A stretch of 64,000 bases of DNA, taken from a virus. Made by a program: the position numbers and the translations under genes. A model generated the notes under the pieces. The model saw only the letters and a program-made list of their open reading frames with translations, did not search any database and had not been told where the DNA came from. The stretch spans positions 33,415 to 97,414 of IMG/VR virus record IMGVR_UViG_3300012931_000017; one strand, 5' to 3'. Positions 9,023 through 49,685 of the stretch are shown piece by piece. Position 1 is the stretch's first letter. Each line of letters starts with the position of its first letter.

Positions 9023-9267
9023 CCTACCTGATGTAATTAGTTTTATTAACCAAAACTTAGAAAATTTTAAATCCACCATATTATTAGTTTAACTTCAACC
9101 AAAGAAGATTTTACAGGTTCTGGTTCTTAAAGTAACCTTAAGGACTAAAGTCTAATTAAGTTTAGATTTTTGGTTAAATTAATTTTGAATATTTTTGAAG
9201 ATAATAACCAAATAATTTTTTGTTCAGAAAAACGAATTTTTTAATTCTAATTTTTAACGATGTTTTC

Positions 9268-9449
9268 AATTTTTATCAAAAAGGATGGAAATTCAGGATG
9301 GCTCTTTATTTTACGTAGTAAAATAAACAATAAGATAATCTTAATATTACTTTAAAGATTATAATATTATTATTATTTTTTTATGAAAAATACCTTATAA
9401 ATCTTTTCTAATTAATATAATATTTTAAAATATAATTGTCAAGTGGCAT
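9268..9449. repeat. repeat unit B2 ending in a minus-strand promoter copy (TTGACA complement at 9436-9441)
   Basis: See 8654..8839. Confidence 0.85.
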
Positions 9450-9531
9450 TTTATTGAACTAAAAATGCTTAATTTTACTTTACTTTAGGTAATTCGTTTT
9501 GTAAAGTAAACTGATGTTAAAATATGGTGAT

Positions 9532-9566
9532 TTGACAATTATATTTTAAAATGATATCTTATAATA
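9532..9566 (+). promoter_or_regulatory. conserved early-promoter element upstream of gp46
   Basis: TTGACAATTATATTTTAAAATGATATCTTATAAT. It is divergent from the minus-strand copy at 9436-9441. Confidence 0.6.
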
Positions 9567-9592
9567 AACAAGAGAATAATAAAGGAGACCAA

Positions 9593-13982: not shown

Positions 13983-13987
13983 ATTTG

Positions 13988-14020
13988 TTGACAATTATAT
14001 TTTAAAATTTAATATTATCA
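13988..14020 (+). promoter_or_regulatory. conserved early-promoter element
   Basis: TTGACAATTATATTTTAAAATTTAATATTAT. Confidence 0.6.
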
Positions 14021-14052
14021 GAAAATTAAACAAAACGAGGTAAGTAAAAACA

Positions 14053-14520
14053 ATGAATTATATTGAAGCACCTAATTATAATTACAATAAAAATCAAAAG
14101 TCTTTATTTTTAGCAGGTTCAATTACTGATTGTCCTGATTGTCCTAATTGGCAACAAGAAGTTATTAATAAACTAAGACCTTTGGACATTAATATCTTCA
14201 ATCCAAGAAGAGCTAATTTCCCAATTAAAGATCCTAATGCAGCATTAGAACAAATAAAGTGGGAATTTAATATGCTTAGAAATGCTGATATAATTTCTTT
14301 TTGGTTTAGCAAAGAAACTCTAGGCCCTATAGTTCTTTATGAATTAGGTGCACATTCAATGACTAATAAACCAATAATAATTGGAATAGATCCTGATTAT
14401 AAAAGAAAACAAGATGTAGTTATTCAGACATTATTAATTAGACCAGAAATTCAAATAACATTTAATTTTGACACATTCATCAATAATATCGAATTTTATA
14501 TAGGAAATAATTTAAAATGA
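14053..14520 (+). CDS. nucleoside 2-deoxyribosyltransferase-fold protein (NDT/Rcl-like)
   Basis: 'LFLAGSI' N-terminal motif and C-terminal 'GPIVLYELGAH...KPIIIG', which resembles the NDT catalytic-Glu region. Confidence 0.45.
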   Translation: MNYIEAPNYNYNKNQKSLFLAGSITDCPDCPNWQQEVINKLRPLDINIFNPRRANFPIKDPNAALEQIKWEFNMLRNADIISFWFSKETLGPIVLYELGAHSMTNKPIIIGIDPDYKRKQDVVIQTLLIRPEIQITFNFDTFINNIEFYIGNNLK

Positions 14521-14903
14521 GTAAAAAAGTGTTTCTTGGAGGGACTTGTAATAATTCTACTTGGAGAGATAAATTAATTCCAAAACTTAAAATATCTTAT
14601 TTTAACCCAGTTGTAAAAGATTGGACTACACAATGTCAAAAAGAAGAGATTAAACAAAGAGAAACTTGTGATTATTGTCTCTATGTTATTTCAAAAGAAA
14701 TGACTGGAGTTTATTCTATAGCTGAAGTTGCTGATGATTCAAATAAAAGACCTAATAAAACTATTTTTTGTTATTTAGTTGATGGATTTTCTTCTGCACA
14801 ATTAAAATCATTAGAAATGGTTGGTCAAATGGTTAAAAATAATGGTGGTACATTTTTGTACTCTTTGGATGATGTAGCTAATTATTTAAACTCTAATAAT
14901 TGA
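14517..14903 (+). CDS. second NDT/Rcl-fold paralogue, translationally coupled to the first
   Basis: 'VFLGGTC...' and 'GVYSIAEVA'; ATGA overlap with the upstream gene. Confidence 0.4.
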   Translation: MSKKVFLGGTCNNSTWRDKLIPKLKISYFNPVVKDWTTQCQKEEIKQRETCDYCLYVISKEMTGVYSIAEVADDSNKRPNKTIFCYLVDGFSSAQLKSLEMVGQMVKNNGGTFLYSLDDVANYLNSNN

Positions 14904-27774: not shown

Positions 27775-29253
27775 ATGTTTGATAATGATGATAATATTAC
27801 TACTTATAGAACCCTCAAAAATATGAGGAATGCTTTAAAACAATCATTAAAAACTAAATATAACATAGAAGATGATGATAAAATAGACCAAATATTATCA
27901 ATTCATGGAATTACCAAAGACAGATTTGATTTTATAAAAACTATTGAATCTACTATAATGGATAAATTAAATGATGTTTCTATTGATGCAAATTCAAATA
28001 AAAATGAAAAAACTATTGAAGCTATAACACAAGAAGCTATTGCTCCAGTTAAAAAAGCTATTGGTTATGATTTTTTGTATAGACAAATGAAAATACTCTA
28101 TGGAAAAGAAGAAGCTAAAAGACTTACTGGTGAAATGTACGATTTAAGTTTAGGACTATCAGATAGCACTAACATTATGAAGTGTTATTGTTGGGCTCTT
28201 GATGCTTCAAAGTTAGTAACTATAGGAAGAGAATTTGGGCAGCTTTGGTCAAAACCATCAAAACGAGTTTCTAGCTATATTTCAGCTCTTTGTGAAACTA
28301 TTCATCAAATGAGTAGCCATTTAGCTGGTGCAATAGCCATCGGTACTTTTTTTCTTGATGTTGCTCATCTGTCTTTATTTAAAGAACAGTTTGATTTAAG
28401 GGAACTAAAAACTAATTCTGAATTTAGAAAAAAATTAGAAAATGAATTTCAGCAATTTATACATTCGGTTAATCATTTAAGTAGAAATGGTAGTGAAAGC
28501 CCGTTTACAAATATTAGTGTATTCGATAGAATAAAACTAAAATCTCTTATTAATGACATGAGTTGGTATTTTCCTTTTGAAGAACTTCCTATCAATCATC
28601 CAAAAGAATTAGAAACGGAAGAACAACAAAAAGAATTCTATATTAACTATATTATAGATTATGTAATGGAAATTCAAAATATATTTCTTGACTTCTTTGA
28701 TAAAGGTGATGTAAGTAAAGATGGTTTACCATATAGATTCCCTCTAGTTACGGTTAATATTTCAAAGAAAAAATGGGGAGACAAAGAAATAATTGAGGAT
28801 TTGGATTTTCTTAAGTCTATATGTAAAAGGGAAATTTATCGTTATAATATTTTTACTAGTGAAGGAACTAAAATTTCAAGCTGTTGTTTTTCTGGAAATG
28901 AGATAATAAAAATCAAAACAAAAGACGGTGAGTCTATATATAGTTCATTAAAAAATTTTGTTGAACTATATTCCGAAGATTTAGAATTTGAACAAAAAAT
29001 TCCTGACGAATATTATATTGATTCGTTGAATAATGAAAATAAAATAGAAAGTACCAAAATACTTGGTGTATTAAAAAAGAAAAATAATACAGGAAAATTA
29101 ATATCTATAACAAGTAATGGAAGAAATATTAAAATTACACCGGATCATATTTTAAAAGTTTTAGATAAAACAACTAAAAAAGAAAAAGAAATTACTGCAT
29201 TAGAATTGAAAAATAATTTTAATAACTATTTGATTCCATTAAATTTAAAATAA
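27775..29253 (+). CDS. nrdD: anaerobic ribonucleoside-triphosphate reductase NrdD, N-terminal extein (27775-28884) fused in frame to the N-terminal half of an intein (28885-29250), ending at a stop codon
   Basis: NrdD-like N-extein. Intein block A 'CFSGNEIIKIKTKDG' starts at the second Cys of 'SSCC', block B is 'ITPDHIL', and a TAA stop follows 'IPLNLK'. Confidence 0.8.
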   Translation: MFDNDDNITTYRTLKNMRNALKQSLKTKYNIEDDDKIDQILSIHGITKDRFDFIKTIESTIMDKLNDVSIDANSNKNEKTIEAITQEAIAPVKKAIGYDFLYRQMKILYGKEEAKRLTGEMYDLSLGLSDSTNIMKCYCWALDASKLVTIGREFGQLWSKPSKRVSSYISALCETIHQMSSHLAGAIAIGTFFLDVAHLSLFKEQFDLRELKTNSEFRKKLENEFQQFIHSVNHLSRNGSESPFTNISVFDRIKLKSLINDMSWYFPFEELPINHPKELETEEQQKEFYINYIIDYVMEIQNIFLDFFDKGDVSKDGLPYRFPLVTVNISKKKWGDKEIIEDLDFLKSICKREIYRYNIFTSEGTKISSCCFSGNEIIKIKTKDGESIYSSLKNFVELYSEDLEFEQKIPDEYYIDSLNNENKIESTKILGVLKKKNNTGKLISITSNGRNIKITPDHILKVLDKTTKKEKEITALELKNNFNNYLIPLNLK

Positions 29254-29261
29254 TTGCTTCC

Positions 29262-29310
29262 TGTTGTTTTTAGTTAAAGTATAAATATTGATAATACTTT
29301 AAACAACAGG
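29262..29310 (+). promoter_or_regulatory. stem-loop between the Int-N stop and the endonuclease-gene RBS
   Basis: CCTGTTGTTT...AAACAACAGG 10-bp inverted repeat, followed by AGGAGATAATTATG. Confidence 0.5.
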
Positions 29311-29318
29311 AGATAATT

Positions 29319-30503
29319 ATGATTGAGTGTCCATATTGTAAAAACCTTTACTCTAATATAAAAACCCATATATTTTATAAACATGGTAAAAGTTATGAAG
29401 ATTTTAAACGGGAATTTCCTAATTTTGGAAAGACTCAAGAAACTGTTTCTTATTGGGACGGCATTTATTATAAATGTGAATTTTGTAAAAATGTTGGAAA
29501 AACTAAACGCAAATCAATGTTATTAAATCATTATAAAAAATATCATTATAATGAATTAAACGAAAGTCAAAAAATAGAGGTTGATAAATATGTTGAATCT
29601 AAAAACAAATTGGATCTAAATGAATTAATAACCTGTCCAATTTGTGAAAGAAAAGTAAGAATGTTTAAACAACATATTGAGAGAGGTCATTGTTTAAATT
29701 GGAATAAATTTTGTGAAGATTATAATTTTGATAAAAATTTAAAATGTATTATTACTAAAAATCACAAAAATCAATTGTCCATTAATAAGAAACTATTTTA
29801 TCAATCTGAAATTGGATTAGATCAAAGAAAACATTTATCAAAAAAATTTTCAGGAAATGGTAATTTTGCAAAACTAAAATATGTTAGAGAAAAAATTTCA
29901 AAATCAATGTTGAGTAATAATAGAACAAATCAACAATTAGGTAGTTTTGGTTTAATAGTTAATTTCATTTATAATAACCAAGAATATTTTTGTAGAAGTT
30001 TTGTTGAATTTAGAATTTTATTTGCTTTACTTGAAAATAATATTCCGTTTGAATATGAAAAAAATAGATTTTTATATGAATTAGATAGTGGTTTAAAACG
30101 GATTTATATTAGTGATTTGAAAATAAACGACCATATATATGAAATCAAAGCATTTTCTGGAGTTAATATAGAGGAAGGAAAATTTAAGGGTTTTGATGTT
30201 TACAATAAAAATATAAGAATCATTATAGAGAAATCTGGTTTTTCTTTTAAAATAGTAAATTATTCTATGCTTATGGATGAACTAAATTTAGAAAAAAATC
30301 CTGATTTTTATTATGCAAATAAAATAAAAGAAATGTTAGAAAAAAATGAAATTAAAAAATTGCAATTTCTGGTTTTTTCACGAAGTAAATTGAAAAGCAA
30401 TTTTTTTAAAAAATACAACATAGATATAGAAAAATATGCTTGTGTTAATTATAAAGAATTTATAAAAGAAAATGGAGATAAAATAAATGATAACTTGGTG
30501 TGA
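29319..30503 (+). CDS. free-standing homing-endonuclease-like protein: three C2H2-like zinc fingers plus a C-terminal PD-(D/E)xK/Vsr-like nuclease domain
   Basis: 'CPYC...HIFYKH', 'CEFC...HYKKYH', 'CPIC...HIERGHC' fingers; C-terminal 'ISDLKINDHIYEIKAF'. Confidence 0.55.
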   Translation: MIECPYCKNLYSNIKTHIFYKHGKSYEDFKREFPNFGKTQETVSYWDGIYYKCEFCKNVGKTKRKSMLLNHYKKYHYNELNESQKIEVDKYVESKNKLDLNELITCPICERKVRMFKQHIERGHCLNWNKFCEDYNFDKNLKCIITKNHKNQLSINKKLFYQSEIGLDQRKHLSKKFSGNGNFAKLKYVREKISKSMLSNNRTNQQLGSFGLIVNFIYNNQEYFCRSFVEFRILFALLENNIPFEYEKNRFLYELDSGLKRIYISDLKINDHIYEIKAFSGVNIEEGKFKGFDVYNKNIRIIIEKSGFSFKIVNYSMLMDELNLEKNPDFYYANKIKEMLEKNEIKKLQFLVFSRSKLKSNFFKKYNIDIEKYACVNYKEFIKENGDKINDNLV

Positions 30504-31512
30504 AATCGAAAAGGTTGAAGAACTTGAAGATAATAACTATGTCTATGATATAGAACTTGAAAATAATCATTATTTTCCTTCTAATGGAATTGTTAGTCAT
30601 AATTGTAGACTAGTTTCGCAGCCAGAAATGTTAAAATTAGCTTCTCAAGTAAATTCGTTTGGTGGAGGTGGTTCTATTTCTTTAGGTAGTCATAGAGTAT
30701 GTACTATAAATTTTAATAGAATTGCATTAGAATGTAAGGATTATGATGATTATTTTAAAATTTTGGAAAATAGACTAGAAGATTCAACCAAAATTTTAGT
30801 TTCTCATAAAGAGCTTATAAAAAATCTAACTAAACAAGGTTTACAAATGTTTATTTCTAATGGTTGGATAAACATGAACAGAATGTTTTCTACTTTTGGT
30901 TTAATAGGTATTTATGAAGCTTGTCAATATATGAATGAAAAATTCGGTTCTTATGATGATTTAGAAAAAGATATATTAGTTTTTGTTAATAAAAAGGTTG
31001 AAGAATTATCCGTAAAATATAACATTAGTGGAAATATTGAGCAAATTCCTGCTGAAAGTTTTGCTATTAGATTGTGTAATGCTGATAAAATTCTTTTTGG
31101 TGAGGATAAAGTAAATTATAAAATTTATGCAAACCAGTTTATACCACTTTGGAATGACGCTACTATTTGGGAAAAAATGGAAGCCGATGGTAGACTTAAT
31201 AAACTTATTACAGGGGGCTCTCTTGTCCATTGTCAAATTGGAGAACGAGTTACATCAAAACAAGCAGAAAAAATAATTAGATACGCCGTTCAAAGTGGGT
31301 GTGAACATTTTGCTCTTAACTCTGTATGGTCTCAATGTGAGCACAATCACGCTTCTTTTGGGAAAGTACTAATTTGTCCTATATGTGGTGGAAAAATAGT
31401 AGATTATTTAACTAGAGTTGTAGGATTCTTTACTCCAGTTTCTTCTTGGACTAAAATTAGAAGAGAGTGGGAATTTGAAAATAGAAAATTTAATAATTTA
31501 GATCAAATATAA
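30487..31512 (+). CDS. nrdD: Int-C (39 aa) fused to the NrdD C-terminal extein (glycyl-radical domain)
   Basis: Int-C blocks F/G '...NGIVSHN' then 'CRLVSQPEM...'; C-terminal zinc site 'CEHNHASFGKVLICPICGG' and glycyl-radical-like 'TRVVGFFTP'. Confidence 0.8.
   Translation: MITWCEIEKVEELEDNNYVYDIELENNHYFPSNGIVSHNCRLVSQPEMLKLASQVNSFGGGGSISLGSHRVCTINFNRIALECKDYDDYFKILENRLEDSTKILVSHKELIKNLTKQGLQMFISNGWINMNRMFSTFGLIGIYEACQYMNEKFGSYDDLEKDILVFVNKKVEELSVKYNISGNIEQIPAESFAIRLCNADKILFGEDKVNYKIYANQFIPLWNDATIWEKMEADGRLNKLITGGSLVHCQIGERVTSKQAEKIIRYAVQSGCEHFALNSVWSQCEHNHASFGKVLICPICGGKIVDYLTRVVGFFTPVSSWTKIRREWEFENRKFNNLDQI
31399..31492 (+). repeat. 94-bp direct repeat, copy 1 (nrdD 3' end)
   Basis: Identical to 32469-32562. 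Confidence 0.9.
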
Positions 31513-31616: not shown

Positions 31617-32585
31617 ATGTGTATTCCTAATTCAATTTATGTAAGTGTAAAACCCGAAACATTAATTTTAGATCTTAGGATTAAAAGACATAAAGTAAAA
31701 ATGGTTTATTTTATTGTATATAAAACTACTAATTTAATAAATCATAAGATTTATGTTGGAATTCATTTACAATTAAATAATTTAGATTTTGATGGTTATT
31801 TGGGTTCTGGTAAACTTATAAAGCTTTCTATAAAGAAATATGGAAAAGAAAATTTTAAAAGAGAAATTATTGAAGTTTGTAAATCTTGGAATGAACTAGA
31901 AGAAAGAGAAGTTTATTGGATTGAATATTTTCACACTTATATTAAAAAATATCCTAATGACAAAGGGATGAATTGTAGCATTGGAGGTACAAGTGGGTTA
32001 AGTGGATGCAAAAATAAACATTGGAGTAAAGGTAGAACTAAGAATGATTGTGAATCTTTAATGAGAATGGCAGAATCAAGAAAAGGTTTAAATAATCCAG
32101 TACATAAAATACCAAAAGAAAAAATGAAATTAATAAATGAAAAAAGATCAAAAATTATGATTGGGATATTAAAAGGTAGAAAAGTTCCTTGGATTGATAA
32201 ATCTGCTAAAACATTAAAATTACGATACAAAAATGAACCAGAATTAAAAGAATATTGTAAAACTTTTAAATATATTATTAAAATTATATTTAAAAATGAA
32301 TCTAAAGTAGAATATGGTTTCTGTTTAGAAGATATTTCTAAGAAATATAATGTAAGTTTGGGTGCCATTTATTCTATAACCCGTAAAAGAAGAAAAAATA
32401 TTTGGGTTGATGATTTAACCTTTGAAATTATACATACTTTTGTTCCAGTTGTTAAATTAGAAAAAGTTGTAGATTATTTAACTAGAGTTGTAGGATTCTT
32501 TACTCCAGTTTCTTCTTGGACTAAAATTAGAAGAGAGTGGGAATTTGAAAATAGAAAATTTACAAAAATACCTGAAGTTCAATAA
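31617..32585 (+). CDS. GIY-YIG homing endonuclease whose 3' end is a duplicated copy of the nrdD 3' end
   Basis: 'VYFIVYKTTNLINHKIYVGIH...YLGSG' GIY-YIG motif. The last 31 codons '...VDYLTRVVGFFTPVSSWTKIRREWEFENRKF' are identical to the NrdD C-terminus. Confidence 0.8.
   Translation: MCIPNSIYVSVKPETLILDLRIKRHKVKMVYFIVYKTTNLINHKIYVGIHLQLNNLDFDGYLGSGKLIKLSIKKYGKENFKREIIEVCKSWNELEEREVYWIEYFHTYIKKYPNDKGMNCSIGGTSGLSGCKNKHWSKGRTKNDCESLMRMAESRKGLNNPVHKIPKEKMKLINEKRSKIMIGILKGRKVPWIDKSAKTLKLRYKNEPELKEYCKTFKYIIKIIFKNESKVEYGFCLEDISKKYNVSLGAIYSITRKRRKNIWVDDLTFEIIHTFVPVVKLEKVVDYLTRVVGFFTPVSSWTKIRREWEFENRKFTKIPEVQ
32469..32562 (+). repeat. 94-bp direct repeat, copy 2
   Basis: See 31399..31492. Confidence 0.9.
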
Positions 32586-32847: not shown

Positions 32848-32856
32848 TAATTTTTA

Positions 32857-32890
32857 TTGACAATTATACTTTAAAATTTAATATTAATAT
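32857..32890 (+). promoter_or_regulatory. conserved early-promoter element upstream of queE, followed by a short hairpin (ATCCAGAGAAGAAATTCTTTGGAT)
   Basis: TTGACAATTATACTTTAAAATTTAATATTAATAT. Confidence 0.6.
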
Positions 32891-32953
32891 CCAGAGAAGA
32901 AATTCTTTGGATATTTTTATTTTGTAAAACTTAAAAATTGGACTAATTAAAAA

Positions 32954-33625
32954 ATGAAAATAATTGAAAAATACGCCGGTTTTCAAGGCGAAGGAAAATA
33001 TCAAGGTAGAAACTCATTGATTCTAAGATTTCCTAATTGCCTTTGTTCGTGTAAATTTTGTGATTCGAAATATTCTTGGTTAAGTCCTAAAATTTTAGAT
33101 ATTCCGGATGAAGAGATATTTAAAGATATAGAAAAATCTGATAATATTATGTTTACTGGTGGAGAACCCTTAATTCCAGAAAATTATGAAGAAATAGAAA
33201 AAATTATAGTTAAGTTTCAAAAACTTAAAACTTATGAAATAGAAACTAATGGAACCATAAATCTTAAAGATAATGCATTAATTTCTTATTTTAAAGAAAA
33301 TATTACATTTAATATTTCACCAAAAAATAATATTGACCAAATTAATATAGATTCTAAAACAGAACCGATTTTATTAAATAATATTAAGTCATATAATTAT
33401 ATTGTGAAATATTTATTTGATTCTTATGAAGATTTGGTTTTTATAACAGAGCAACAAAAAATTTATGATATTCCAAGAAATTTAATTTATGCTCAACCAA
33501 AAGGAACTAATTCAAAAGTATTGAAAGATTTAATAACTAAATACTATGATATAATTATTAGTAAGGGTTGGAATATTTCTTACAGAAGTCATATATTCTT
33601 GTTTGAAAATGATAGAGGATTTTAA
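32954..33625 (+). CDS. queE: 7-carboxy-7-deazaguanine synthase QueE (radical SAM)
   Basis: 'FQGEGKYQGRNSLILRFPNCLCSCKFCDS' radical-SAM cluster in the QueE arrangement; 'FTGGEPL'. Confidence 0.7.
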   Translation: MKIIEKYAGFQGEGKYQGRNSLILRFPNCLCSCKFCDSKYSWLSPKILDIPDEEIFKDIEKSDNIMFTGGEPLIPENYEEIEKIIVKFQKLKTYEIETNGTINLKDNALISYFKENITFNISPKNNIDQINIDSKTEPILLNNIKSYNYIVKYLFDSYEDLVFITEQQKIYDIPRNLIYAQPKGTNSKVLKDLITKYYDIIISKGWNISYRSHIFLFENDRGF

Positions 33626-33673
33626 TAGTACAATAACAAAGATATTTAAAACTGAAACTAATTTTAAGGAGAT

Positions 33674-34045
33674 ATGATGATTCTAAAACTTTACACAGAA
33701 ACTGTAATTGATATTGCTCATTATTTGAGCGGGTATGCTGGAAATTGTAGTAATACTCATGGCCATTCGGAAAAAATATGTATTTGGGTTGAAGGTGATA
33801 GTAGATGGAAAAATGATGTAGGAATTCTTTTTGATTTTGCTTCTGTTAAAAAAATTAAAGAAAAATATGATCACAGAATGCTTAATGAAATTGAACCTTT
33901 TGATAAAATTAATCCAACTGCAGAAAATATTTCTGAAGTAATTTATAATGATTTAAAAAATGAAAGACCCGAATTAAAATTTAAAGTTAGAGTTTATGAA
34001 ACATATGTTGGTAAAGAAACTTATTGTGAACTCGGTGATTTTTAA
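33674..34045 (+). CDS. queD: 6-carboxy-5,6,7,8-tetrahydropterin synthase QueD
   Basis: 'CSNTHGHSE' Cx3HGH zinc/catalytic motif of the PTPS/QueD family; about 120 aa. Confidence 0.8.
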   Translation: MMILKLYTETVIDIAHYLSGYAGNCSNTHGHSEKICIWVEGDSRWKNDVGILFDFASVKKIKEKYDHRMLNEIEPFDKINPTAENISEVIYNDLKNERPELKFKVRVYETYVGKETYCELGDF

Positions 34046-34178
34046 ATTGATTCCATTGATTAAACTAAGATGTAAAGAAACTGTTAAGAAGTTACCTAAA
34101 GTTATTCCACCAAAGAAAGGGAAACAAAAACCCTTTCAAAGAAGAAAGCGAGTTGATTTAGATGAAAACCAACAATAA
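33996..34178 (+). CDS. possible small basic protein (60 aa, K/R-rich); may be spurious
   Basis: ORF track; overlaps the queD 3' end in another frame; 'KKLPKVIPPKKGKQKPFQRRKR'. Confidence 0.15.
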   Translation: MKHMLVKKLIVNSVIFKLIPLIKLRCKETVKKLPKVIPPKKGKQKPFQRRKRVDLDENQQ

Positions 34179-34632
34179 TTCTTATATTATGACTTGGGAC
34201 GATTTAATTAAACGAGTTCAATATCTTCAGGATGATATTTATACTTATTTAGGAGAGTTTAATAGACTAAAAATATATGGTGTTCCGAGAGGTGGTCTTA
34301 TGTTAGCTTCAGTATTTACAACTCTTGGTTGGAATGAATTAGTATTTGATCCTAATAAAGCCGATATAATTATTGATGATATTATTGATAGTGGTGCAAC
34401 TAAAAAATATTATACCGAAAAGTATAATAAACCATTCTTTGCTCTTATTGATAAACAAAATAATGAAGAACATAAAGAACTTGGATGGTTAGTTTTTCCG
34501 TGGGAATCCTCAAAACCAGATACTCTAAATGATAATTTACTTCGTGTTCTTCAGTTTTATAATTTACCTGATAGTTATTTACCTGCATTAAATGATAATA
34601 TTGAATTGTTTATTAAAAATTTAGATTATTAA
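34162..34632 (+). CDS. small type-I phosphoribosyltransferase-domain protein
   Basis: PRPP-binding motif 'ADIIIDDIIDSGAT'; 'GVPRGG'. Confidence 0.55.
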   Translation: MKTNNNSYIMTWDDLIKRVQYLQDDIYTYLGEFNRLKIYGVPRGGLMLASVFTTLGWNELVFDPNKADIIIDDIIDSGATKKYYTEKYNKPFFALIDKQNNEEHKELGWLVFPWESSKPDTLNDNLLRVLQFYNLPDSYLPALNDNIELFIKNLDY

Positions 34633-34641
34633 TGATTTTTA

Positions 34642-34675
34642 TTGACAATTATACTTTAAAATTTAATATTTAATT
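34642..34675 (+). promoter_or_regulatory. conserved early-promoter element upstream of folE
   Basis: TTGACAATTATACTTTAAAATTTAATATTTAATT. Confidence 0.6.
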
Positions 34676-34697
34676 AAACATTTATGAAAGGATCATT

Positions 34698-35396
34698 TTG
34701 GAAACATTAGTTAAAGTTTGTGCTAAATGTGGAACTTATGAAGACTTAACCGAATTTGATAATATAGTTATTTGTAAGTCATGTCTTAAAAAGTATTCTC
34801 TGAAAAATAATATTCGTAAGTTTACAGGCATTCCAGAAATAGAACGTGCCGGAGAATTAATATTAGAAGGTCTTAAAAATACTTTTGGTTTGGATATAAC
34901 CGATCCTAATTTCAAAGATACTCCTAAACGTATGGCTAGAGCTTATTATGAAATCTTTGAAGGAATAAATTCCAAAGAAGAAATTGATGATATATTATCT
35001 ACTAGTTTTCCTTCACAATATAATGCAATGGTGGTTGCTAAAGATATACATTGTTTTTCAACCTGTCCTCATCATATATTACCAGTTGAATATAAAGTTA
35101 ATTTGGGTTATATTCCTTCAGAACAAGTTTTAGGAATATCTAAATTATCAAGATTGGTTGAATTATTAGCTAAACAACCTAAATTACAAGAAGATTTTAC
35201 TAATGATATAGTTAATATTCTTGAATCTAATATTAAACCTAATGGTGTTATTTGTCAAGTTAGAGGAAGACATTTGTGTATGGCTATGAGAGGTGCTAAA
35301 CAACCTAATTCTTGGACTCTTACAAGTACAATTACTGGAGCATTTAATAGATTAGAAACTCGAAATGAATTTCAAATGTTGATAACGGGTGAATAA
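34698..35396 (+). CDS. folE: GTP cyclohydrolase I
   Basis: 'KDTPKRMARAY', 'CPHHILP', 'GISKLSRLV', 'GRHLCMAMRG' - all four signature blocks of FolE. Confidence 0.9.
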   Translation: METLVKVCAKCGTYEDLTEFDNIVICKSCLKKYSLKNNIRKFTGIPEIERAGELILEGLKNTFGLDITDPNFKDTPKRMARAYYEIFEGINSKEEIDDILSTSFPSQYNAMVVAKDIHCFSTCPHHILPVEYKVNLGYIPSEQVLGISKLSRLVELLAKQPKLQEDFTNDIVNILESNIKPNGVICQVRGRHLCMAMRGAKQPNSWTLTSTITGAFNRLETRNEFQMLITGE

Positions 35397-36730
35397 TGAT
35401 TGATATAAATGAATACTTTAAAAAGGTTAATTATTATATAGCAACCTCCGATGAAATGATCGGAATTGATGCTAATTATGATTATTTGAACGATAATTTT
35501 TCTCACGAAAATAAACAAGAACGAGTTAACGTAACCTATTATGATTTGATTGATGACAAATATATGGATGGAGTTTTAACATCCAAAGCATTAGTTACTG
35601 GTAGACAAGTAGAAACTTATACTTCATTAGGAGGACTAAGGAAATACTTTAATATTCCAAAAAGTTATTATTTGATGGGTGATTGTGGAGCACCTACATA
35701 CTTTAACGAAGATAATCCACCATTTACGATTAGTGATCTTTTAGATTTTTATGAAAATCTTGATTTAGATTTTGGTATAACATTAGATCATATTGTTGAT
35801 ATGGTTGATATGACTAACAGAATTAAACCAACAAAAACTCATATTTATCGAAGAGAACTTTCTTGTAAAAATGCAATTGAAATGCTAAAATTAGTTAAAG
35901 AAAGAAAATCGAAAATATATTTATTAGGTTCTGTACAAGGTTGGAGTCCCGAATCTTATAAGCAATCATTAATTGAGTTAGGTGAAGCAGGATTTAAATA
36001 TTGTGCTATTGGTGGATTAACTATGACAGGTAATACTGATATAGTATCACAAATTCTTAGTTATTTAACACCAACAGCTAAGAAATATGGAATTAAATTA
36101 CATTTACTTGGGTTTGGTAGATTAGCTCTATTATCATCATTTTTAAAATATGATATATTGAGTTCTATTGATAATTCTACACCATTATTAAATGCCAGTA
36201 ATGCACCAACATCGGCTTATTTCTTTAATTTAAAAAATAAGTTTTATAAATATGACACTATTTATCTTCCAATTTTTAGTAAAGGAGCTCCTTCCTTGAA
36301 TAAGAAGATAAAGAATCTTTATGAAAATGATTATAGTGATATTATTGTTGAGTTAGATGAATTTTCCCATAATATAGTTAAACAATTAAGAGAATTTGAT
36401 GAATTAGAAAACTCAAAAGAAATAAAAAATAAAGAATTATTTAATTCAATATTAAGAAATATACAAAAGTTTGAGTTAATGCATCGTAAATATTCTGGAA
36501 CTAATCATGATGGAATGAATACTTATTTAAACGAAATTAAATTAGTATTAAATAGCAAATGTTGGAAAAACTGTAGTTGTCCTCTTTGTAAAACTTATGG
36601 TATTAATATGGTTACTTTTAGATCTCAAATGAGAAATAAATTGAGAGGTATTCATAATTTAAAACATTATTACGATTATTTTTGTTGTGAGTTAAATAAA
36701 AATAATAAAATGAACAAATTTTTACTTTAG
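35396..36730 (+). CDS. dpdA: tRNA-guanine-transglycosylase-family protein, probable DNA 7-deazaguanine transglycosylase DpdA
   Basis: 'LGSVQGW...CAIGGLTM' (TGT 'GIVQGG...AIGGLSVGE'), 'LHLLGFG...DSSTP', zinc site 'CSCPLC'. Lies inside the queCDE/folE cluster, as dpdA does in phage 7-deazaguanine systems. Confidence 0.7.
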   Translation: MIDINEYFKKVNYYIATSDEMIGIDANYDYLNDNFSHENKQERVNVTYYDLIDDKYMDGVLTSKALVTGRQVETYTSLGGLRKYFNIPKSYYLMGDCGAPTYFNEDNPPFTISDLLDFYENLDLDFGITLDHIVDMVDMTNRIKPTKTHIYRRELSCKNAIEMLKLVKERKSKIYLLGSVQGWSPESYKQSLIELGEAGFKYCAIGGLTMTGNTDIVSQILSYLTPTAKKYGIKLHLLGFGRLALLSSFLKYDILSSIDNSTPLLNASNAPTSAYFFNLKNKFYKYDTIYLPIFSKGAPSLNKKIKNLYENDYSDIIVELDEFSHNIVKQLREFDELENSKEIKNKELFNSILRNIQKFELMHRKYSGTNHDGMNTYLNEIKLVLNSKCWKNCSCPLCKTYGINMVTFRSQMRNKLRGIHNLKHYYDYFCCELNKNNKMNKFLL

Positions 36731-36739
36731 ATTGATTTT

Positions 36740-36958
36740 ATGGATGAAATGAATAATATAACAAAACAGATTAATGATAATGTTATTGGAGAACTCTATA
36801 ATAGATATACTATAATATTAAATGAACACCTTCCAGAAAAAACTTTGTGTGTTAGTTCAGATATTTTTAACACTTTTAAAAAAGATAAAAAGTTTGAGGA
36901 AAATATAACTAAAATGAAAAGAATTATAGAAGAAATGGACGATGATAAAAATGTATAA
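36740..36958 (+). CDS. hypothetical small protein (72 aa)
   Basis: ORF track. Confidence 0.2.
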   Translation: MDEMNNITKQINDNVIGELYNRYTIILNEHLPEKTLCVSSDIFNTFKKDKKFEENITKMKRIIEEMDDDKNV

Positions 36959-37382
36959 TCATATTTCTGTAGATTTTGATGGAACTCTATTTGTTAATGG
37001 TGAAATTGATAAAGAACTTGTTGATAAACTTAATAAACAATATAATGGTAAGGTTTTTATATTTACCAGTCGGAGTTGGGGAGATTATTTTTTAATTAAG
37101 AATCTTATAACTGAAGCTAAATTAAAGTTTGAAGGAATAGTTTGTGGTAAGTTAATTGCAGGTAAATATCTTGATGATAGAAATATTAGTATTGATGAGT
37201 TTAAAGATTCATCCAATAAAATATCTAATAACAATGAAGAAATATCACGAAATTATCTTATTTGCTTCACTTGTCATTTAGCAAAAACATCTCCGTATGA
37301 TGATGGTAAATTTTGTGCATTTATTATAGATAAACACGATTGGTCTGAACTACCACCTAATTGCCCAAGAAGTAGGTGGTAG
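36942..37382 (+). CDS. HAD-superfamily phosphatase-like protein with a C-terminal Cys/His cluster
   Basis: 'ISVDFDGTLF' DxDGT motif I, 'IFTSR' motif II-like; C-terminal 'CFTCH...CAF...CPRS'. Confidence 0.45.
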   Translation: MIKMYNHISVDFDGTLFVNGEIDKELVDKLNKQYNGKVFIFTSRSWGDYFLIKNLITEAKLKFEGIVCGKLIAGKYLDDRNISIDEFKDSSNKISNNNEEISRNYLICFTCHLAKTSPYDDGKFCAFIIDKHDWSELPPNCPRSRW

Positions 37383-37400
37383 AAGAAAGTAGATAACTAA

Positions 37401-37595
37401 ATGAATAATGAAACTAAACTTAAAAGACTGAATGATAAAATGGATATTCTAAGAAGACAAATATCTGATTTAGAATATACTATTAAACAAGAAAAACAAG
37501 CTAAATGTACTAATCATGATTTTGAATATTTCTGTAGTTCTCATAATGATAGTGTTTATAGATGCATTAAATGTGGTTTAATGGAGGAAAGATGA
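37401..37595 (+). CDS. hypothetical small zinc-ribbon protein (64 aa)
   Basis: 'CTNHDFEYFCSSH...CIKCG'. Confidence 0.2.
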   Translation: MNNETKLKRLNDKMDILRRQISDLEYTIKQEKQAKCTNHDFEYFCSSHNDSVYRCIKCGLMEER

Positions 37596-38449
37596 GCTAT
37601 TCAACTATTACATTCACTCGTGGTGATAAAGATTTAATTCCTACATTTATAACTATATCAATGCAAGATTATAAACCAAAAGAAAGTATTTTGGTAATTG
37701 ATAGTAGATGGATACATGGCAACTATACTTTATATCATCAAATATCATTGATTGAAAATATTTTAGTTCCATTAAATATTAAATTTTCTGTTTATATTAG
37801 TGGAAAATTACATAATAATTTTGCTAAGGTAAAGAATTTTGGTTATTCAAAAGTAGAAACCTCTCATGTATTATATGTTGAAGATGATTGTTTAATTCCT
37901 GCAAACTATGCAAACAATTTGTTTTGTTTGATGATAAGAAATTATTATTATGGTTCATCGGGTGGTATTCAATTACTTATAGAAGATTCTGATGATATTC
38001 AAGAAAAACCAATTTTTGATAAAATTGAATTACCAGAAGAAAAATATTACCAAAGACTCAAAGTCGAAAATGGTAAACTAGAATATGATTCTATTAAACA
38101 TCAATGCTACCTATATAAACATAGTTCATCGGAAAAAGGTAGAACAATACCATGTCATGCATTATTGCATACTTATATGTTAAATATGGAGGTTTTACGA
38201 GAGGTTGGAATGTGGGATGAGAATGCTCCTGAACATGGATCACTAATCTTTGAAGAAATGGATGTAATGTTTAGAATGCACTTAAAAGGATATATAAACT
38301 GGATTCATACAGATTTGATTATGTATCATTATAGGAAATCAAATAGAAGAACTGAAAATGATAAAATATCCCAAAGAGAAGCTTTAAGAGAAGAAAGAAA
38401 ATTATATTTTGGTCAGAAATACATTAGAGAGGGTTTAATAAATGGGTAA
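37571..38449 (+). CDS. hypothetical protein (292 aa) inside the deazaguanine cluster; possible glycosyltransferase or oxygenase fold
   Basis: 'YVEDDCLIP' DxD-like; no firm assignment. Confidence 0.3.
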   Translation: MWFNGGKMSYSTITFTRGDKDLIPTFITISMQDYKPKESILVIDSRWIHGNYTLYHQISLIENILVPLNIKFSVYISGKLHNNFAKVKNFGYSKVETSHVLYVEDDCLIPANYANNLFCLMIRNYYYGSSGGIQLLIEDSDDIQEKPIFDKIELPEEKYYQRLKVENGKLEYDSIKHQCYLYKHSSSEKGRTIPCHALLHTYMLNMEVLREVGMWDENAPEHGSLIFEEMDVMFRMHLKGYINWIHTDLIMYHYRKSNRRTENDKISQREALREERKLYFGQKYIREGLING

Positions 38450-39008
38450 TGAAATATACGAATATAAAAATAATGAAGATTTTAGTGTAACAACTAAAAC
38501 TAGAATTCATGAATTTCTTGGAATTATGAATAAAATTATAAAATTTAAATCTGGATTACATACAATAGCTGATGTTTGTTGTGGAAATAAGTTTATTGGT
38601 AATGCTATACAATCTTATGTACCAACTAGGACTTGTGATTTTTATGATTATTATCCTATTGATTCCACTATATCTAAAATTGATTTGAATTTTAAAGTTG
38701 AATCTAAGATAAAATATGATTTGGTTATATTTAGTCATTCTTTAGAACATTTTGAAGATTCAGGAATGGTTTTAAATTCATTAAAAACTTTTCTTAATGC
38801 TTCTGGACAATTGATTATTGTAGTTCCTAATTGTGAATATAATATAAAAGCTAGAGATCCTAATCTTGGTCATTTTAAATTTTTTGATTTTAATAGCTTA
38901 AAAGAAGAAGTTAATAAAGTTTTTACCATTGATTTTATTGCTGAAAATAATCAAGATGTTGGTTTTGAAGAACTTTGGATAGTTTGTTCTAATAAATTGA
39001 AAAGGTAA
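38442..39008 (+). CDS. class I SAM-dependent methyltransferase
   Basis: Motif I 'IADVCCGNKFIG'; 'DLVIFSHSLEHFED'. Confidence 0.55.
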   Translation: MGNEIYEYKNNEDFSVTTKTRIHEFLGIMNKIIKFKSGLHTIADVCCGNKFIGNAIQSYVPTRTCDFYDYYPIDSTISKIDLNFKVESKIKYDLVIFSHSLEHFEDSGMVLNSLKTFLNASGQLIIVVPNCEYNIKARDPNLGHFKFFDFNSLKEEVNKVFTIDFIAENNQDVGFEELWIVCSNKLKR

Positions 39009-39012
39009 GTTT

Positions 39013-39903
39013 ATGAATACTCAAAAGGAAGTTAAATATTCTGATTTAGTGAAAAATAAATTTCCTGAATTATTTGCACCTTATATAGATGGAGTTTCAT
39101 TTGAAATGAATAAGCATATTTTGATTTTATATTCTGGTGGATTAGACTCAAAAATATTAGAACGTTATGCACAAGTAACTAATCCAAATGCAAAAATAAC
39201 TAAAGTTTGGTTTGATATTGGACAAGAATATAATGAAAAAGAACGCGCTTGTCTTGATTCATCTGTTGAAATTAGAAAAATAGACTATCTTAGAGATGTG
39301 AAAGGAGTTTCTAAAGATGGTAATGTTTGTGGTTCTATTATGATTCCTGGTCGAAATGCTGTATTAGCTATGTTAGGAGCTTCAATATATCTTCCTGATG
39401 AAATTTGGATGGGTGCTGTAAAAGGCGAAGATAACTCTGGAGCTACTGATAAAAATAGAGAATTTGTTAGATTGTTTAATGATTGTATTGGTTATGTACT
39501 TTCACCTTACAAAAAAGTAACTCTTAGATTTCCTTTTGTTGAAACTTTTAAAGGAAAATCAGAAATTGTTTCATGGGCTTTACGTAATGGATTAAGTAAG
39601 GAAGAATTGATGGCTACTTCATCTTGTTTATCGGGTGAAGCTGGTAATTGTGGAACCTGTATTGTTTGTGTTAGAAGGTGGGGTATTTTTTATAGTTTGG
39701 GTTTTGAAGAGAAGTATAATAATAACTTATTTTCTGATAAGAATGCTATAGATTATTTGATTAATGTATTAATTGATGATGGTTCTCATTATGATGAATA
39801 TAGAAAAAGAGAGGTAATTCCTGCACTAAAAAAGAAATTTAATGTTAATAATGAAGATGAATTACTTAAAATTTTAAATGATTTAAAAGAGAGGTGTAAA
39901 TGA
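39013..39903 (+). CDS. queC: 7-cyano-7-deazaguanine synthase QueC (PP-loop ATPase)
   Basis: PP-loop 'LYSGGLDS'; C-terminal zinc cluster 'CLSGEAGNCGTCIVC'. Confidence 0.8.
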   Translation: MNTQKEVKYSDLVKNKFPELFAPYIDGVSFEMNKHILILYSGGLDSKILERYAQVTNPNAKITKVWFDIGQEYNEKERACLDSSVEIRKIDYLRDVKGVSKDGNVCGSIMIPGRNAVLAMLGASIYLPDEIWMGAVKGEDNSGATDKNREFVRLFNDCIGYVLSPYKKVTLRFPFVETFKGKSEIVSWALRNGLSKEELMATSSCLSGEAGNCGTCIVCVRRWGIFYSLGFEEKYNNNLFSDKNAIDYLINVLIDDGSHYDEYRKREVIPALKKKFNVNNEDELLKILNDLKERCK

Positions 39904-40331
39904 TTACAATTAATGTGAAGAAACTTAGTGATACAGCTCAACTTCCAGAATATAAGTCTGAGAATGCTATTGGAGCTGATATTTGTTCAAATGAAAAGCT
40001 TATAATTAAAGCAGGTAAATTTAGTTTAGTAAAAACTGGATTGGCTATAGATCTTCCACAAACTCATGAAGCTCAAGTTAGATCAAGAAGTGGTTTAGCA
40101 GCAAAGAATGGTGTATTTGTACTTAATTCACCCGGAACTATAGACCCTGATTATGTTGGTGAAGTTGGTGTAATATTAGCTAATTTTGGTGATAAAGATT
40201 TTGAAATTAATATTGGTGATAGAATTGCTCAATTAGTTATTTCCGAAAAACCATTAGTTCACTTCAAATTGGTTAAGGAAATTAAAAATACAGATAGAGG
40301 AACGAACGGATTTGGTTCAACAGGAAAATAA
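39900..40331 (+). CDS. dut: dUTPase (trimeric dUTP pyrophosphatase)
   Basis: 'AIGADICS', 'RSRSGLA', 'GTIDPDYVGEVGVIL', C-terminal 'RGTNGFGSTG'. Confidence 0.8.
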   Translation: MITINVKKLSDTAQLPEYKSENAIGADICSNEKLIIKAGKFSLVKTGLAIDLPQTHEAQVRSRSGLAAKNGVFVLNSPGTIDPDYVGEVGVILANFGDKDFEINIGDRIAQLVISEKPLVHFKLVKEIKNTDRGTNGFGSTGK

Positions 40332-40336
40332 TTTTA

Positions 40337-40370
40337 TTGACAATTATACTTTAAAATTTAATATTATAAT
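40337..40370 (+). promoter_or_regulatory. conserved early-promoter element upstream of the sliding-clamp gene
   Basis: TTGACAATTATACTTTAAAATTTAATATTATAAT. Confidence 0.6.
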
Positions 40371-49345: not shown

Positions 49346-49443
49346 TACAAAATCTTTGCTCGTGTCGAATAATGATTAGTTCAACTGATTTTCAGTCAGT
49401 TAATTGGAGTTTGATTCTCCACACGAGTATTTTTAATTTATTT

Positions 49444-49527
49444 GGGTGATTCGCATAGTGGTCAAGTGCTCCTGACTGTAGATCAGGCGGCGAAAGCCTT
49501 TCGGTGGTTCAAATCCATCATCACCCA
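49444..49527 (+). tRNA. tRNA-Tyr (GTA), class II with long variable arm
   Basis: Hand-folded. Acceptor GGGTGAT/ATCACCC, D-stem GCAT/GTGC, anticodon stem CCTGA/TCAGG with loop CTGTAGA, 15-nt variable arm, T-arm GGTGG-TTCAAAT-CCATC. Confidence 0.8.
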
Positions 49528-49539
49528 TTTTTATTTTAA

Positions 49540-49603
49540 TGACTTGTATTTCAATTGGTAGAACCCAGAGATGTAGTTGTAGGTTCAAATCCTTCCAAGT
49601 CAG
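49540..49603 (+). pseudogene. degenerate tRNA-like element (64 nt): acceptor, D-arm and T-arm present, anticodon arm truncated
   Basis: Acceptor TGACTTG/CAAGTCA, D-arm TTTC-AATTGGTA-GAAC, T-arm GTAGG-TTCAAAT-CCTTC, but only about 13 nt where the anticodon arm plus variable region (about 22 nt) should be. Confidence 0.45.
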
Positions 49604-49612
49604 TTTTCTTAT

Positions 49613-49685
49613 TGCAGGGTTGAGAAAGGGATTCTCACAAGCCTCATAAGCTTGGATATGAAGTTTCAAATCCTTCCTCTGCAAG
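49613..49685 (+). tRNA. tRNA-Met/fMet/Ile2 (CAT)
   Basis: Acceptor TGCAGGG/CTCTGCA, D-arm GAGA-AAGGGAT-TCTC, anticodon arm CAAGC-CTCATAA-GCTTG, T-arm GAAGT-TTCAAAT-CCTTC (one mismatch). Confidence 0.7.

Follow-up and report, generated by a model that had tools for sequence, protein, structure and literature searches.

A bacterial-type DpdA in an uncultured T4-like phage, with candidate guanine-salvage and base-decoration genes in its 7-deazaguanine cluster

We describe a gene cluster for the 7-deazaguanine modification of DNA in a 64-kb stretch of viral sequence (positions 33,415 to 97,414 of the IMG/VR record IMGVR_UViG_3300012931_000017; hereafter the window), which is part of a 97.8-kb metagenomic contig (ENA ERZ27227667) of an uncultured, low-GC, T4-like phage. 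The cluster (window positions 32854-40364, plus strand) joins a complete set for preQ0 (7-cyano-7-deazaguanine), with the FolE, QueD, QueE and QueC families all present, to a DNA-guanine transglycosylase of the bacterial DpdA type. These are accompanied by a small phosphoribosyltransferase-fold protein (PRT1), a HAD-like phosphatase, a probable, divergent glycosyltransferase of the GT-A/GT2 type (hereafter GT2) and a class-I S-adenosylmethionine (SAM)-dependent methyltransferase. On the strength of these sequences, we lean towards an overall reading in which guanine in the phage DNA would be exchanged for a 7-deazaguanine after replication, the expelled guanine would be salvaged, and the base finally present would be an undescribed, decorated one.

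The firmest part of this reading is the exchange itself: we regard it as highly probable, from the sequence of DpdA, that this enzyme swaps guanine for a phage-made 7-deazaguanine. Its match to the DpdA equivalog model, which lies above the cut-off (Table 1), spans residues 12-427 of 444; the tRNA Tgt model TIGR00430 gives 26 bits against its cut-off of 306.75, and PADLOC labels the protein DpdA (7.3e-73). The sole relative in the PDB is 7UI4, the Salmonella DNA-guanine transglycosylase (E = 4e-42), in which Asp95 serves as acid/base, Asp256 as nucleophile and Asp130 in base binding, alongside a Cys3His zinc site (PMC10164549). In the alignment to 7UI4, D96, D131 and D259 match Asp95, Asp130 and Asp256, respectively, and C393, C395, C398 and H420 form the zinc site (CSCPLC...H). 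These residues are all invariant in a six-member clade of the closest homologues; two substitutions relative to 7UI4, Phe99 to Pro and His181 to Gln, were also seen. The equivalog score, the kinship with 7UI4 and the retention of the catalytic and zinc-binding residues therefore point to base exchange in DNA, not to modification of tRNA. Thus, the proposal of an initial annotation, made from the letters of this DNA alone, that a DpdA-type 7-deazaguanine modification cluster is encoded here stands, and the TGT-like protein, for which that annotation had left a grouping with tRNA-modifying enzymes conceivable, sides with the bacterial subfamily of DpdA. The enzyme of Salmonella Montevideo (7UI4) is homologous over its full length and shares the catalytic Asp pair and the CxCxxC...H zinc site. 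In contrast to it, the present DpdA is encoded by a lytic T4-like phage that has preQ0 genes of its own next to dpdA, and the identity between the two proteins is ~27%. BLAST against phage records returned only one match to this DpdA, from an unannotated uncultured fecal phage, and no relative of it was found in IMG/VR.

The supply of the base is likewise well supported: FolE, QueD and QueE would take GTP to 7-carboxy-7-deazaguanine (CDG), a divergent QueC-family ligase would process the carboxylate, and the bacterial-type DpdA would then replace guanine in the replicated phage DNA with the resulting 7-deazaguanine. The best NCBIfam matches of QueE are QueE models, with scores under their equivalog cut-offs; its sequence has the CxxxCxxC cluster motif and is 45% identical to the orthologue in a related contig lineage, L002. 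QueD retains the CxxxHGH signature (CSNTHGH) and is therefore, by a published criterion, QueD and not the decarboxylase DpdL (PMC10516641). The folE gene, with a TTG start and AAAGGA upstream, encodes an N-terminal CxxC...CxxC extension of ~55 amino acids (aa; 34698-34860); the L002 FolE open reading frame (ORF; 9037-9999) is fused instead to an HNH domain. The QueC-like protein belongs to a 'long' subfamily with a C-terminal extension of ~65 aa that is conserved in the family, and its gene may alternatively start at 39106. Its family profile recovers the QueC structures 2PG3 and 3BL5 from the PDB (E = 8e-10), where the single sequence alone gives no match, and the SGGLDS, PGRN and C...CGxCxxC motifs are invariant. 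The product of this enzyme could, by its sequence, be the preQ0 nitrile, 7-amido-7-deazaguanine (ADG) or another (substituted) amide; RoyL, a QueC homologue, produces the amide of CDG (bioRxiv 10.64898/2026.04.15.718813). QueF, Gat-QueC, DpdL, DpdM and DpdN were not found in the cluster, the first two as the initial annotation had said. Phages of the Queuovirinae (9g, CAjan and the Nipunavirus members NP1 and Quinobequin-P09) similarly combine FolE, QueD, QueE and QueC with DpdA and post-replicative exchange. However, they use DpdA1, not the bacterial-type DpdA of the window phage, and the Nipunavirus cluster that we examined, unlike that of the window, has no annotated methyltransferase, glycosyltransferase or HAD gene.

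The arrangement of the genes speaks to whether the additional ones belong with this core. All genes called in the initial annotation were recovered as plus-strand ORFs in place (Table 1), and their family assignments hold. They fall into two units, queE-queD-PRT1 and folE-dpdA-orf72-HAD-orf64-GT2-methyltransferase-queC-dut, the latter closing, as had been claimed, with the dUTPase gene. The window has six copies, with zero to two mismatches, of a 31-nt motif, TTATTGACAATTATACTTTAAAATTTAATAT (at 13985, 21332, 32854, 34639, 40334 and 63327). A scan found sigma-70-type hexamers in this motif, TTGACA and TAATAT with 16 nt between them. All six copies are intergenic and on the plus strand, where none is expected by chance, and the motif is probably an early or middle promoter consensus of the phage. 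The two copies earlier taken as early promoters driving the cluster are exact ones, and expression of the whole set from two copies of one phage promoter motif is well supported. A third opens the next unit, whose first ORF is 58% identical to the L002 sliding clamp. From folE to dut, neighbouring genes overlap at their start and stop codons or leave gaps of at most 18 nt, and scans for the motif and for terminators found no internal copy and no terminator-like site in this unit. Hence, the co-transcription of the additional genes with folE, dpdA and queC is the straightforward reading.

Protein and contig searches recovered five syntenic T4-like contig lineages with the order queE-queD-PRT1-folE-dpdA ... 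queC-dut, followed by clamp genes, in which DpdA is 60% (L006/L014-16), 53% (the P0004 contig and L001) or 42% (L002/L003 and L008) identical to that of the window; at the nucleotide (BLAST) level, the window has no relative among 50,697 phage records. The dut orthologues follow queC in L002, L006, L008 and L014 and are syntenic in all relatives. More distant T4-like contigs, L017 and L018, have a DpdA2-like transglycosylase, followed by HAD, a second phosphoribosyltransferase-like gene (PRT2), methyltransferase and queC. Every lineage has a small HAD-like gene within the dpdA-queC interval or immediately next to it, and the closer subclade adds the methyltransferase, whose gene comes straight after dpdA in L006/L014 but precedes queC in the window (and in L017). 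The content of this interval is variable, yet not random. The close gene packing, along with the recurrence of the additional genes beside dpdA or queC in related and more distant T4-like phages, upholds the view that they are part of the cluster. Two further observations concern these relatives: in L006, two small DnaJ-like CxxCxGxG ORFs separate PRT1 and folE, and L002 has a second radical-SAM gene (277 aa, 13814-14647) between queC and dut, as well as a sulfotransferase-like gene past the clamp.

PRT1, described in the initial annotation as a 156-aa phosphoribosyltransferase of the phosphoribosyl pyrophosphate (PRPP) type, indeed has a canonical PRPP loop, IIIDDIIDSGAT, a pyrophosphate (PPi) loop, VPRGG, and a fold like that of xanthine-guanine phosphoribosyltransferase (XGPRT). 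Across 40 diverse sequences of its family, P42, G44, G45, D72, D73, D76, G78 and T80 are invariant, as is the FPWE hood motif. The family profile matches xanthine phosphoribosyltransferase (XPRT)/XGPRT structures best in the PDB (E = 1e-7), end-to-end but for deletions of ~21 and ~9 residues. With the AlphaFold2 (AF2) model (pLDDT 92), the top 50 Foldseek matches listed are all purine phosphoribosyltransferases save one ppGpp-bound hypothetical protein, and E. coli XGPRT comes first, at 25% identity. D76, K97 and W109 of PRT1 align with Asp92, Lys115 and Trp134 of XGPRT. In 6-oxopurine phosphoribosyltransferases such as XGPRT and its hypoxanthine-guanine counterpart (HGPRT), the Asp contacts N7 and the Lys O6. 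The retention of these three positions therefore makes PRT1 look like a binder of guanine or xanthine, not of a 7-deazapurine.

The distribution of the PRT1 family ties it to FolE. Among 97 homologues, 44 are the N-terminal domain of a ~270-aa FolE protein, and in cultured phages all 34 matches fall within genes annotated only as GTP cyclohydrolase I. Such PRT::FolE proteins occur in Pseudomonas Nipunavirus and in siphophages of Vibrio, Stenotrophomonas, Xanthomonas, Variovorax and Sphingomonas, and that of the Nipunavirus Quinobequin-P09 lies within a classical QueE/Gat-QueC/QueD/FolE cluster. The module is thus shared by the window with Nipunavirus, Vibrio VpKK5 and related phages; in these it is fused to FolE, whereas in the window it is encoded separately, by a gene that ends in a stop codon of its own, and a promoter stands between this gene and folE. 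The stand-alone PRT1 proteins end in a helix, "(E)DNxxR(I/L)LQ", which the fusions have as the opening helix of their FolE domain: the C-terminal DNLLRVLQFYNL of PRT1 aligns with EDNFIRILQYLGED of the latter. Further, the PRT1 gene is directly upstream of folE in all four loci of the clade. Since the family is mostly a FolE domain and keeps guanine-type residues, PRT1 is best seen as a general partner of FolE and not as evidence for a nucleotide-level bypass of base exchange. A functional coupling of PRT1 to FolE is likely. The role that we find most plausible is that PRT1, with FolE, would convert the guanine expelled by DpdA, together with PRPP, to GMP, which would clear away a base that competes with the deazaguanine for the intermediate of DpdA and DNA, and would replenish the GTP that FolE consumes. 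As a specific assignment drawn from sequence, such salvage falls just short of an even chance. Three central papers on phage deazaguanines make no mention of a phosphoribosyltransferase. A link of PRT::FolE to the phage iggy, in which motif-specific dPreQ0 was measured, was considered and dropped, as iggy is not among the 34 PRT-positive records.

The initial annotation had drawn the opposite lesson from the phosphoribosyltransferase, suggesting a nucleotide-level route as one possibility. In such a route, PRT1 would phosphoribosylate 7-deazaguanine, the product would be reduced and phosphorylated to a dNTP for incorporation by the polymerase, and DpdA would be secondary. Steps of this kind have precedents: TubE has been proven to phosphoribosylate CDG with PRPP, and ToyH has been proposed to act likewise on preQ0 (PMC6112128); for Campylobacter phage CP220, infected cells were reported to contain the ADG nucleoside (PMC10516641). 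Moreover, the cluster has genes for a T4-type dNMP kinase and an anaerobic NTP reductase in its vicinity. PRT2, encoded in L002 (11860-12309), L008 (4486-4962) and L017 (8968-9441), always after the HAD-like gene and passing PF00156 in L008, has Ala and Gly at the positions of Asp92 and Lys115 of XGPRT; this would fit a substrate without N7. By its sequence, PRT2 may be a true 7-deazapurine phosphoribosyltransferase that forms a ToyH/ToyI-like pair with the HAD protein. However, BLAST found no PRT2 in the window (nor any usable match to it in cultured phages), which has only PRT1 with its guanine-type residues, of a family that is mainly a FolE domain, including in clusters of the Queuovirinae type. 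DpdA, too, is intact, and is conserved in every relative. The conserved neighbour is a phosphatase, not a kinase, and the cluster has no kinase, GMP-reductase-like or dGTP-removing enzyme. In contrast to the toyocamycin/tubercidin route, the window has dpdA, and neither a GMP reductase nor an adenylosuccinate enzyme is found among the cluster ORFs. We accordingly judge a nucleotide-level bypass improbable in the window phage, and return to base exchange with guanine salvage as the preferred reading of PRT1.

The remaining three enzymes bear on the chemistry of the base. For the methyltransferase, the Pfam match and a Rossmann-type model confirm the earlier class-I SAM-dependent assignment. Its family comprises three clusters in 5.8 billion proteins, each zero to one genes from queC and beside queC/dpdA, the copy in L017 adjoining a different, DpdA2-like transglycosylase. 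In the same 5.8 billion proteins no bacterial relative was found, and cultured phages offered no usable match. The top-ranked structural neighbours listed for the AF2 model (pLDDT 76) are small-molecule and natural-product methyltransferases (NodS, Plu4895, DnrK and BioC). The 292-aa protein, previously left as unknown, can now be assigned as a probable, divergent GT-A/GT2 glycosyltransferase from its family profile and its distant members; the probable start at 37592 would make it 285 aa. It has only seven matches among 1.84 billion representatives. Against the PDB, the family profile recovers GT2 enzymes (chondroitin synthase, TarS-type and SpsA) with E = 8e-9 to 1e-4; the alignment behind this profile (A3) includes one unrelated sequence, the 300-aa protein of L017, and the call also rests on the distant members, of which P0213, P0215, P0216 and P0217 pass PF00535. 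The window protein alone reaches only 0.015 against PF13632, and an ArN...YVEDD motif can be read in its sequence. On the P0004 contig (88.7 kb), the genes for a 277-aa protein and a 189-aa Methyltransf_23 protein are probable counterparts of the window GT2 and methyltransferase. The L017 300-aa protein, encoded after queC, had itself been a candidate counterpart of GT2, and was rejected when a clean profile comparison gave no relationship.

The HAD-like protein has a core of ~90 aa whose four motifs are invariant in four homologues, and homologues 64-69% identical to it lie in or beside the dpdA-queC interval of L001 and L006/L014. The motifs speak for the HAD part of its earlier description as a HAD phosphatase with a Cys/His tail; the tail is not conserved, and the 87-aa homologue of L014 and L006 lacks it. 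Model scores are weak (TIGR01484, HAD-IIB: 0.0031, 17.6 bits against 41.8), with no Pfam HAD match and a best PDB E of 0.086; profile searches of both HAD types returned nothing significant from the PDB, and cultured phages yielded no usable match to the window protein.

Together, the methyltransferase, GT2 and HAD proteins would modify the deazaguanine or a group attached to it by QueC, and virion DNA would then finally contain, in place of plain dPreQ0, an undescribed derivative that is methylated and/or glycosylated; the HAD protein would have the least clear role in this scheme. That these three proteins act on the deazaguanine pathway at all has, in our estimate, a slightly better than even chance, and that they give rise to a new base in DNA is a more tentative proposition, which we place clearly below even. 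A further-decorated base, as the initial annotation had envisaged, is thus plausible, given that such clusters are the only known setting of the methyltransferase family and that GT2 belongs to the same operon.

A less eventful interpretation is that this is an ordinary dPreQ0/dADG phage, in which the methyltransferase, GT2, HAD and small ORFs are unrelated accessories that landed in a variable spot. The dpdA-queC interval does vary, with homing endonucleases present there in L002; GT2 is absent from L006/L014, another glycosyltransferase (PF13712) is encoded 4 kb downstream, outside the cluster, and the HAD protein and methyltransferase are without known function. Against this, the methyltransferase family occurs nowhere else in the 5.8 billion proteins, and in three lineages, with two transglycosylase families between them, its gene is never more than one gene away from queC. 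A HAD-like gene comes straight after dpdA or just ahead of queC in all lineages examined, the cultured Menderavirus phages among them, and these genes share in the translational packing of the folE-dut unit. We consider the ordinary-phage interpretation a minority prospect.

The comparison with Stenotrophomonas Menderavirus (vB_SmaM_Ps15, Mendera, Moby and IME-SM1) is instructive in this regard. These phages are also T4-like, have a 'long' QueC that is 46-48% identical to that of the window, and carry a small HAD-like gene beside queC, with a transglycosylase adjacent. This transglycosylase differs in being of the DpdA2-like phrog_10773 type, no PRT1 was seen in these phages, and in place of the methyltransferase and GT2 there is a myo-inositol-1-phosphate synthase. 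In vB_SmaM_Ps15 (L019, 84315-86050), the genes for the latter enzyme and the HAD-like protein lie between folE and queC; the HAD-like gene is annotated there as 'phosphoribosyltransferase' in GenBank and as 'polynucleotide kinase' in RefSeq. The published description of Ps15 reports no nucleoside analysis of the phage DNA (PMC9025141). The pairing of inositol synthase and HAD hints at another unexplored decoration of deazaguanine.

In concept, DpdM, DpdN and DpdL provide a precedent for extra cluster enzymes that diversify 7-deazaguanine, to mdPreQ1, fdPreQ1 and dDG (PMC10516641). The comparison with these families, proposed in the initial annotation for the 292-aa, phosphoribosyltransferase and methyltransferase proteins, came out negative. 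DpdM has the DUF3109/YkgJ metal-binding fold with a CxxxCxxCC site and acts on dPreQ1 (PMC10516641), whereas the phage methyltransferase is a class-I Rossmann enzyme; the window cluster has no QueF to supply preQ1. As regards DpdL and DpdN, the sole PTPS-family gene keeps the Cys of QueD, and the cluster has no formyltransferase.

Another set of parallels is offered by the actinomycete clusters for toyocamycin, tubercidin, huimycin and roseomycin, which likewise surround a preQ0/CDG core with a phosphoribosyltransferase, HAD, methyltransferase, glycosyltransferase or QueC-like amide ligase. HuiC O-methylates preQ0, and HuiG glycosylates it (bioRxiv 10.64898/2026.04.15.718813). One might, therefore, suppose that the accessory enzymes of the phage make a free 7-deazapurine metabolite of the huimycin or toyocamycin kind during infection and do not decorate DNA. 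Each has a functional analogue there (ToyH/TubE for the phosphoribosyltransferase, ToyI for HAD, HuiC for the methyltransferase and HuiG for the glycosyltransferase), and the enzymes closest to the methyltransferase in fold belong to natural-product pathways. Yet the actinomycete clusters, which yield free metabolites, are defined by the absence of dpdA, here in the same operon, and their tailoring enzymes are analogues from other families, not homologues: HuiG is of the GT-B type (PF13439), in contrast to the GT-A/GT2 protein of the window, no bacterial relative of the methyltransferase was found, and no sequence relationship of the phage methyltransferase or GT2 to the actinomycete tailoring enzymes was detected. 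Neither a transporter nor a regulator is present. Free-metabolite production is thus very improbable, and modification of the DNA base remains the use that we prefer for these enzymes.

Several observations weigh against the reading of exchange, salvage and decoration. Bacterial DpdA requires the ATPase DpdB (PMC10164549). The DpdB motif DG[QN][QH]R is absent from all six frames of the 64-kb window, the part of the 97.8-kb contig covered by this search, and with PADLOC the 10 cluster ORFs give only DpdA and QueC as Dpd matches, with no DpdB or DpdC; thus, none of the DpdB, DpdC or DpdD-K partners of the bacterial Dpd system was found in these searches. The lack of DpdB in the window would imply that the phage DpdA acts alone or with an unrecognised partner. 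As to the decoration, GT2 is documented only in the window and probably in one other contig, and the accessory set varies, with the methyltransferase, with or without GT2, in one subclade and the second phosphoribosyltransferase in the other. Both HAD types fall short of the curated HAD thresholds, and the mutual homology of the two is not demonstrable. Nor does preQ0 present an obvious sugar acceptor in the major groove. As to the salvage, the whole PRT1 family is without the ~21 residues that form the flexible catalytic loop II of XGPRT, between the PPi and PRPP loops, and PRT1 scores under the family cut-offs (PF00156, 14 bits against 26.3; NF006613, the XPRT equivalog, 26.9 against 138). 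It could hence be a ligand-binding domain rather than an enzyme.

This last point leads to a serious alternative, in which PRT1 would be a purely regulatory domain of FolE that senses PRPP, GMP or guanine and tunes the use of GTP, by analogy with PurR and PyrR. Besides the lost loop and the low scores, the reduction of the core to ~95-115 aa is in keeping with it, as is the constant fusion or adjacency to FolE, and the retained FolE helix could dock on the FolE oligomer. The invariant PRPP and PPi residues and FPWE motif in the 40 sequences, however, fit catalysis at least as well as binding, and XGPRT is itself a very small enzyme. We therefore see the regulatory role as having perhaps one chance in several, and keep guanine salvage as our working proposal for PRT1.

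Table 1. Features of the 7-deazaguanine cluster and its boundaries (window coordinates).
Feature	Coordinates	Strand	Basis
Promoter-like motif before queE	32854..32884	+	exact copy
13-bp hairpin and U-run, queE leader	32886..32915	+	terminator-like by scan; RNA fold -16.8 kcal/mol, z = -4.2
queE, radical-SAM 7-carboxy-7-deazaguanine synthase	32954..33625	+	PF04055 3.3e-8; phrog_2076 QueE-like 1.2e-30
queD, 6-carboxytetrahydropterin synthase	33674..34045	+	PF01242 4e-25; TIGR03367 81.8 bits vs cut-off 89.25
PRT1, minimal XGPRT/Gpt-like phosphoribosyltransferase-fold protein, 156 aa	34162..34632	+	profile and fold matches
Promoter-like motif before folE	34639..34669	+	exact copy
folE, GTP cyclohydrolase I	34698..35396	+	PF01227 5.9e-53; NF006826 180.7 bits vs cut-off 162
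dpdA, bacterial-type DNA-guanine transglycosylase, 444 aa	35396..36730	+	NF041059 DpdA equivalog 254 bits vs cut-off 200
orf72	36740..36958	+	no match in Pfam, PHROGs, PADLOC; not found in relatives
HAD-like small phosphatase	36942..37382	+	motifs DFDGT, FTSR, CGK, LDDR; phrog_1238 1.9e-13; probable start 36951
orf64, small Cys/His ORF	37401..37595	+	C...H...CxxC pattern; no significant family match
Probable, divergent GT-A/GT2 glycosyltransferase, 292 aa	37571..38449	+	family profile vs GT2 structures
Class-I SAM methyltransferase, very small phage-only family	38442..39008	+	PF13489 (Methyltransf_23) 3.6e-9
queC-like ATP-dependent ligase	39013..39903	+	PF06508 53.4 bits vs 22; TIGR00364 51 bits vs 150
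dut, trimeric dUTPase	39900..40331	+	PF00692 8.3e-31; last gene of unit
Promoter-like motif opening next unit (sliding clamp), 3' cluster boundary	40334..40364	+	exact copy

Among the smaller features of the cluster, only one of the two tiny ORFs previously described as zinc ribbons, orf64, has a Cys/His pattern; orf72 has none. The hairpin in the queE leader may act as an attenuator or stabilise the 5' end. The folE copy of the promoter motif, unlike the queE copy, is not followed by a comparable hairpin, and no preQ1-type riboswitch or other Rfam element was found in the queE leader, the hairpin included, or elsewhere in the cluster.

The wider window has a GC content of ~25%, with a GC skew that is positive from ~8 kb on, and encodes T4-type replication genes on its plus strand, namely RNase H, NrdG, NrdD, the sliding clamp, the clamp loader, ThyX and a dNMP kinase. 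Its nrdD is broken into three pieces (27775-31512). The first (27775-29253) comprises the N-terminal part of NrdD and ~120 additional residues, the second (29319-30503) is a separate 394-aa ORF with no Pfam match, and the third (30487-31512) opens with the C-terminal splicing block of an intein ('...GIVSHN|C', PF14890, aa 2-39), after which comes the C-terminal part of NrdD. This looks like a split-intein arrangement in which an endonuclease-sized gene separates the halves; the L002 orthologue is a single, unbroken 677-aa gene. A 101-nt direct repeat of 98% identity (31392-31492 and 32462-32562) stands on both sides of a GIY-YIG homing-endonuclease ORF (31617-32585), and copies the final 31 codons of nrdD in frame onto the end of the latter; the duplicated end is taken to be the glycyl-radical region. 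The window further has five tRNA genes (49357-49685 and 62516-63304), for Glu-TTC, Tyr-GTA, Met-CAT, Gln-TTG and Gly-TCC. The Tyr-GTA tRNA normally bears queuosine at position 34.

The core described here is a system of a known kind. What is new is the presence of a bacterial-type DpdA in a T4-like phage, with no DpdB found in the 64-kb window; a split form of a widespread PRT::FolE module, which is, as far as we have found, undescribed; a recurrent HAD-like gene in or beside the dpdA-queC interval; and what appear to be two very small enzyme families, the methyltransferase and GT2, tied to such clusters. Eight 7-deazaguanine derivatives are known from phage DNA, and each new one has brought its own enzymology, along with new resistance to restriction and Cas nucleases. 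If the additional genes were unrelated neighbours, the window phage would merely be one more with dPreQ0 or dADG. A phage DpdA without DpdB in the window, in any event, bears on the ATP need of the bacterial enzyme, and the methyltransferase and GT2 families are candidates for new DNA chemistry and for modified-DNA tools. Dozens of phage lineages carry a Gpt-like module, either joined to FolE or encoded next to it, a pattern suggesting that what becomes of the expelled guanine has a bearing on the exchange. The full combination of an unseen methyl- and/or sugar-bearing 7-deazaguanine in DNA, made by the phage-only methyltransferase, GT2, the HAD phosphatase and the QueC variant, with a loop, via PRT and FolE, from guanine through GMP and GTP back to deazaguanine is one to which we would give a small chance. 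If true, it would provide the first glycosylated 7-deazapurine in DNA, and the recycling of guanine would make high-level replacement affordable. In that case, many phage deazaguanine systems would share the PRT::FolE loop as a general component that has been overlooked.

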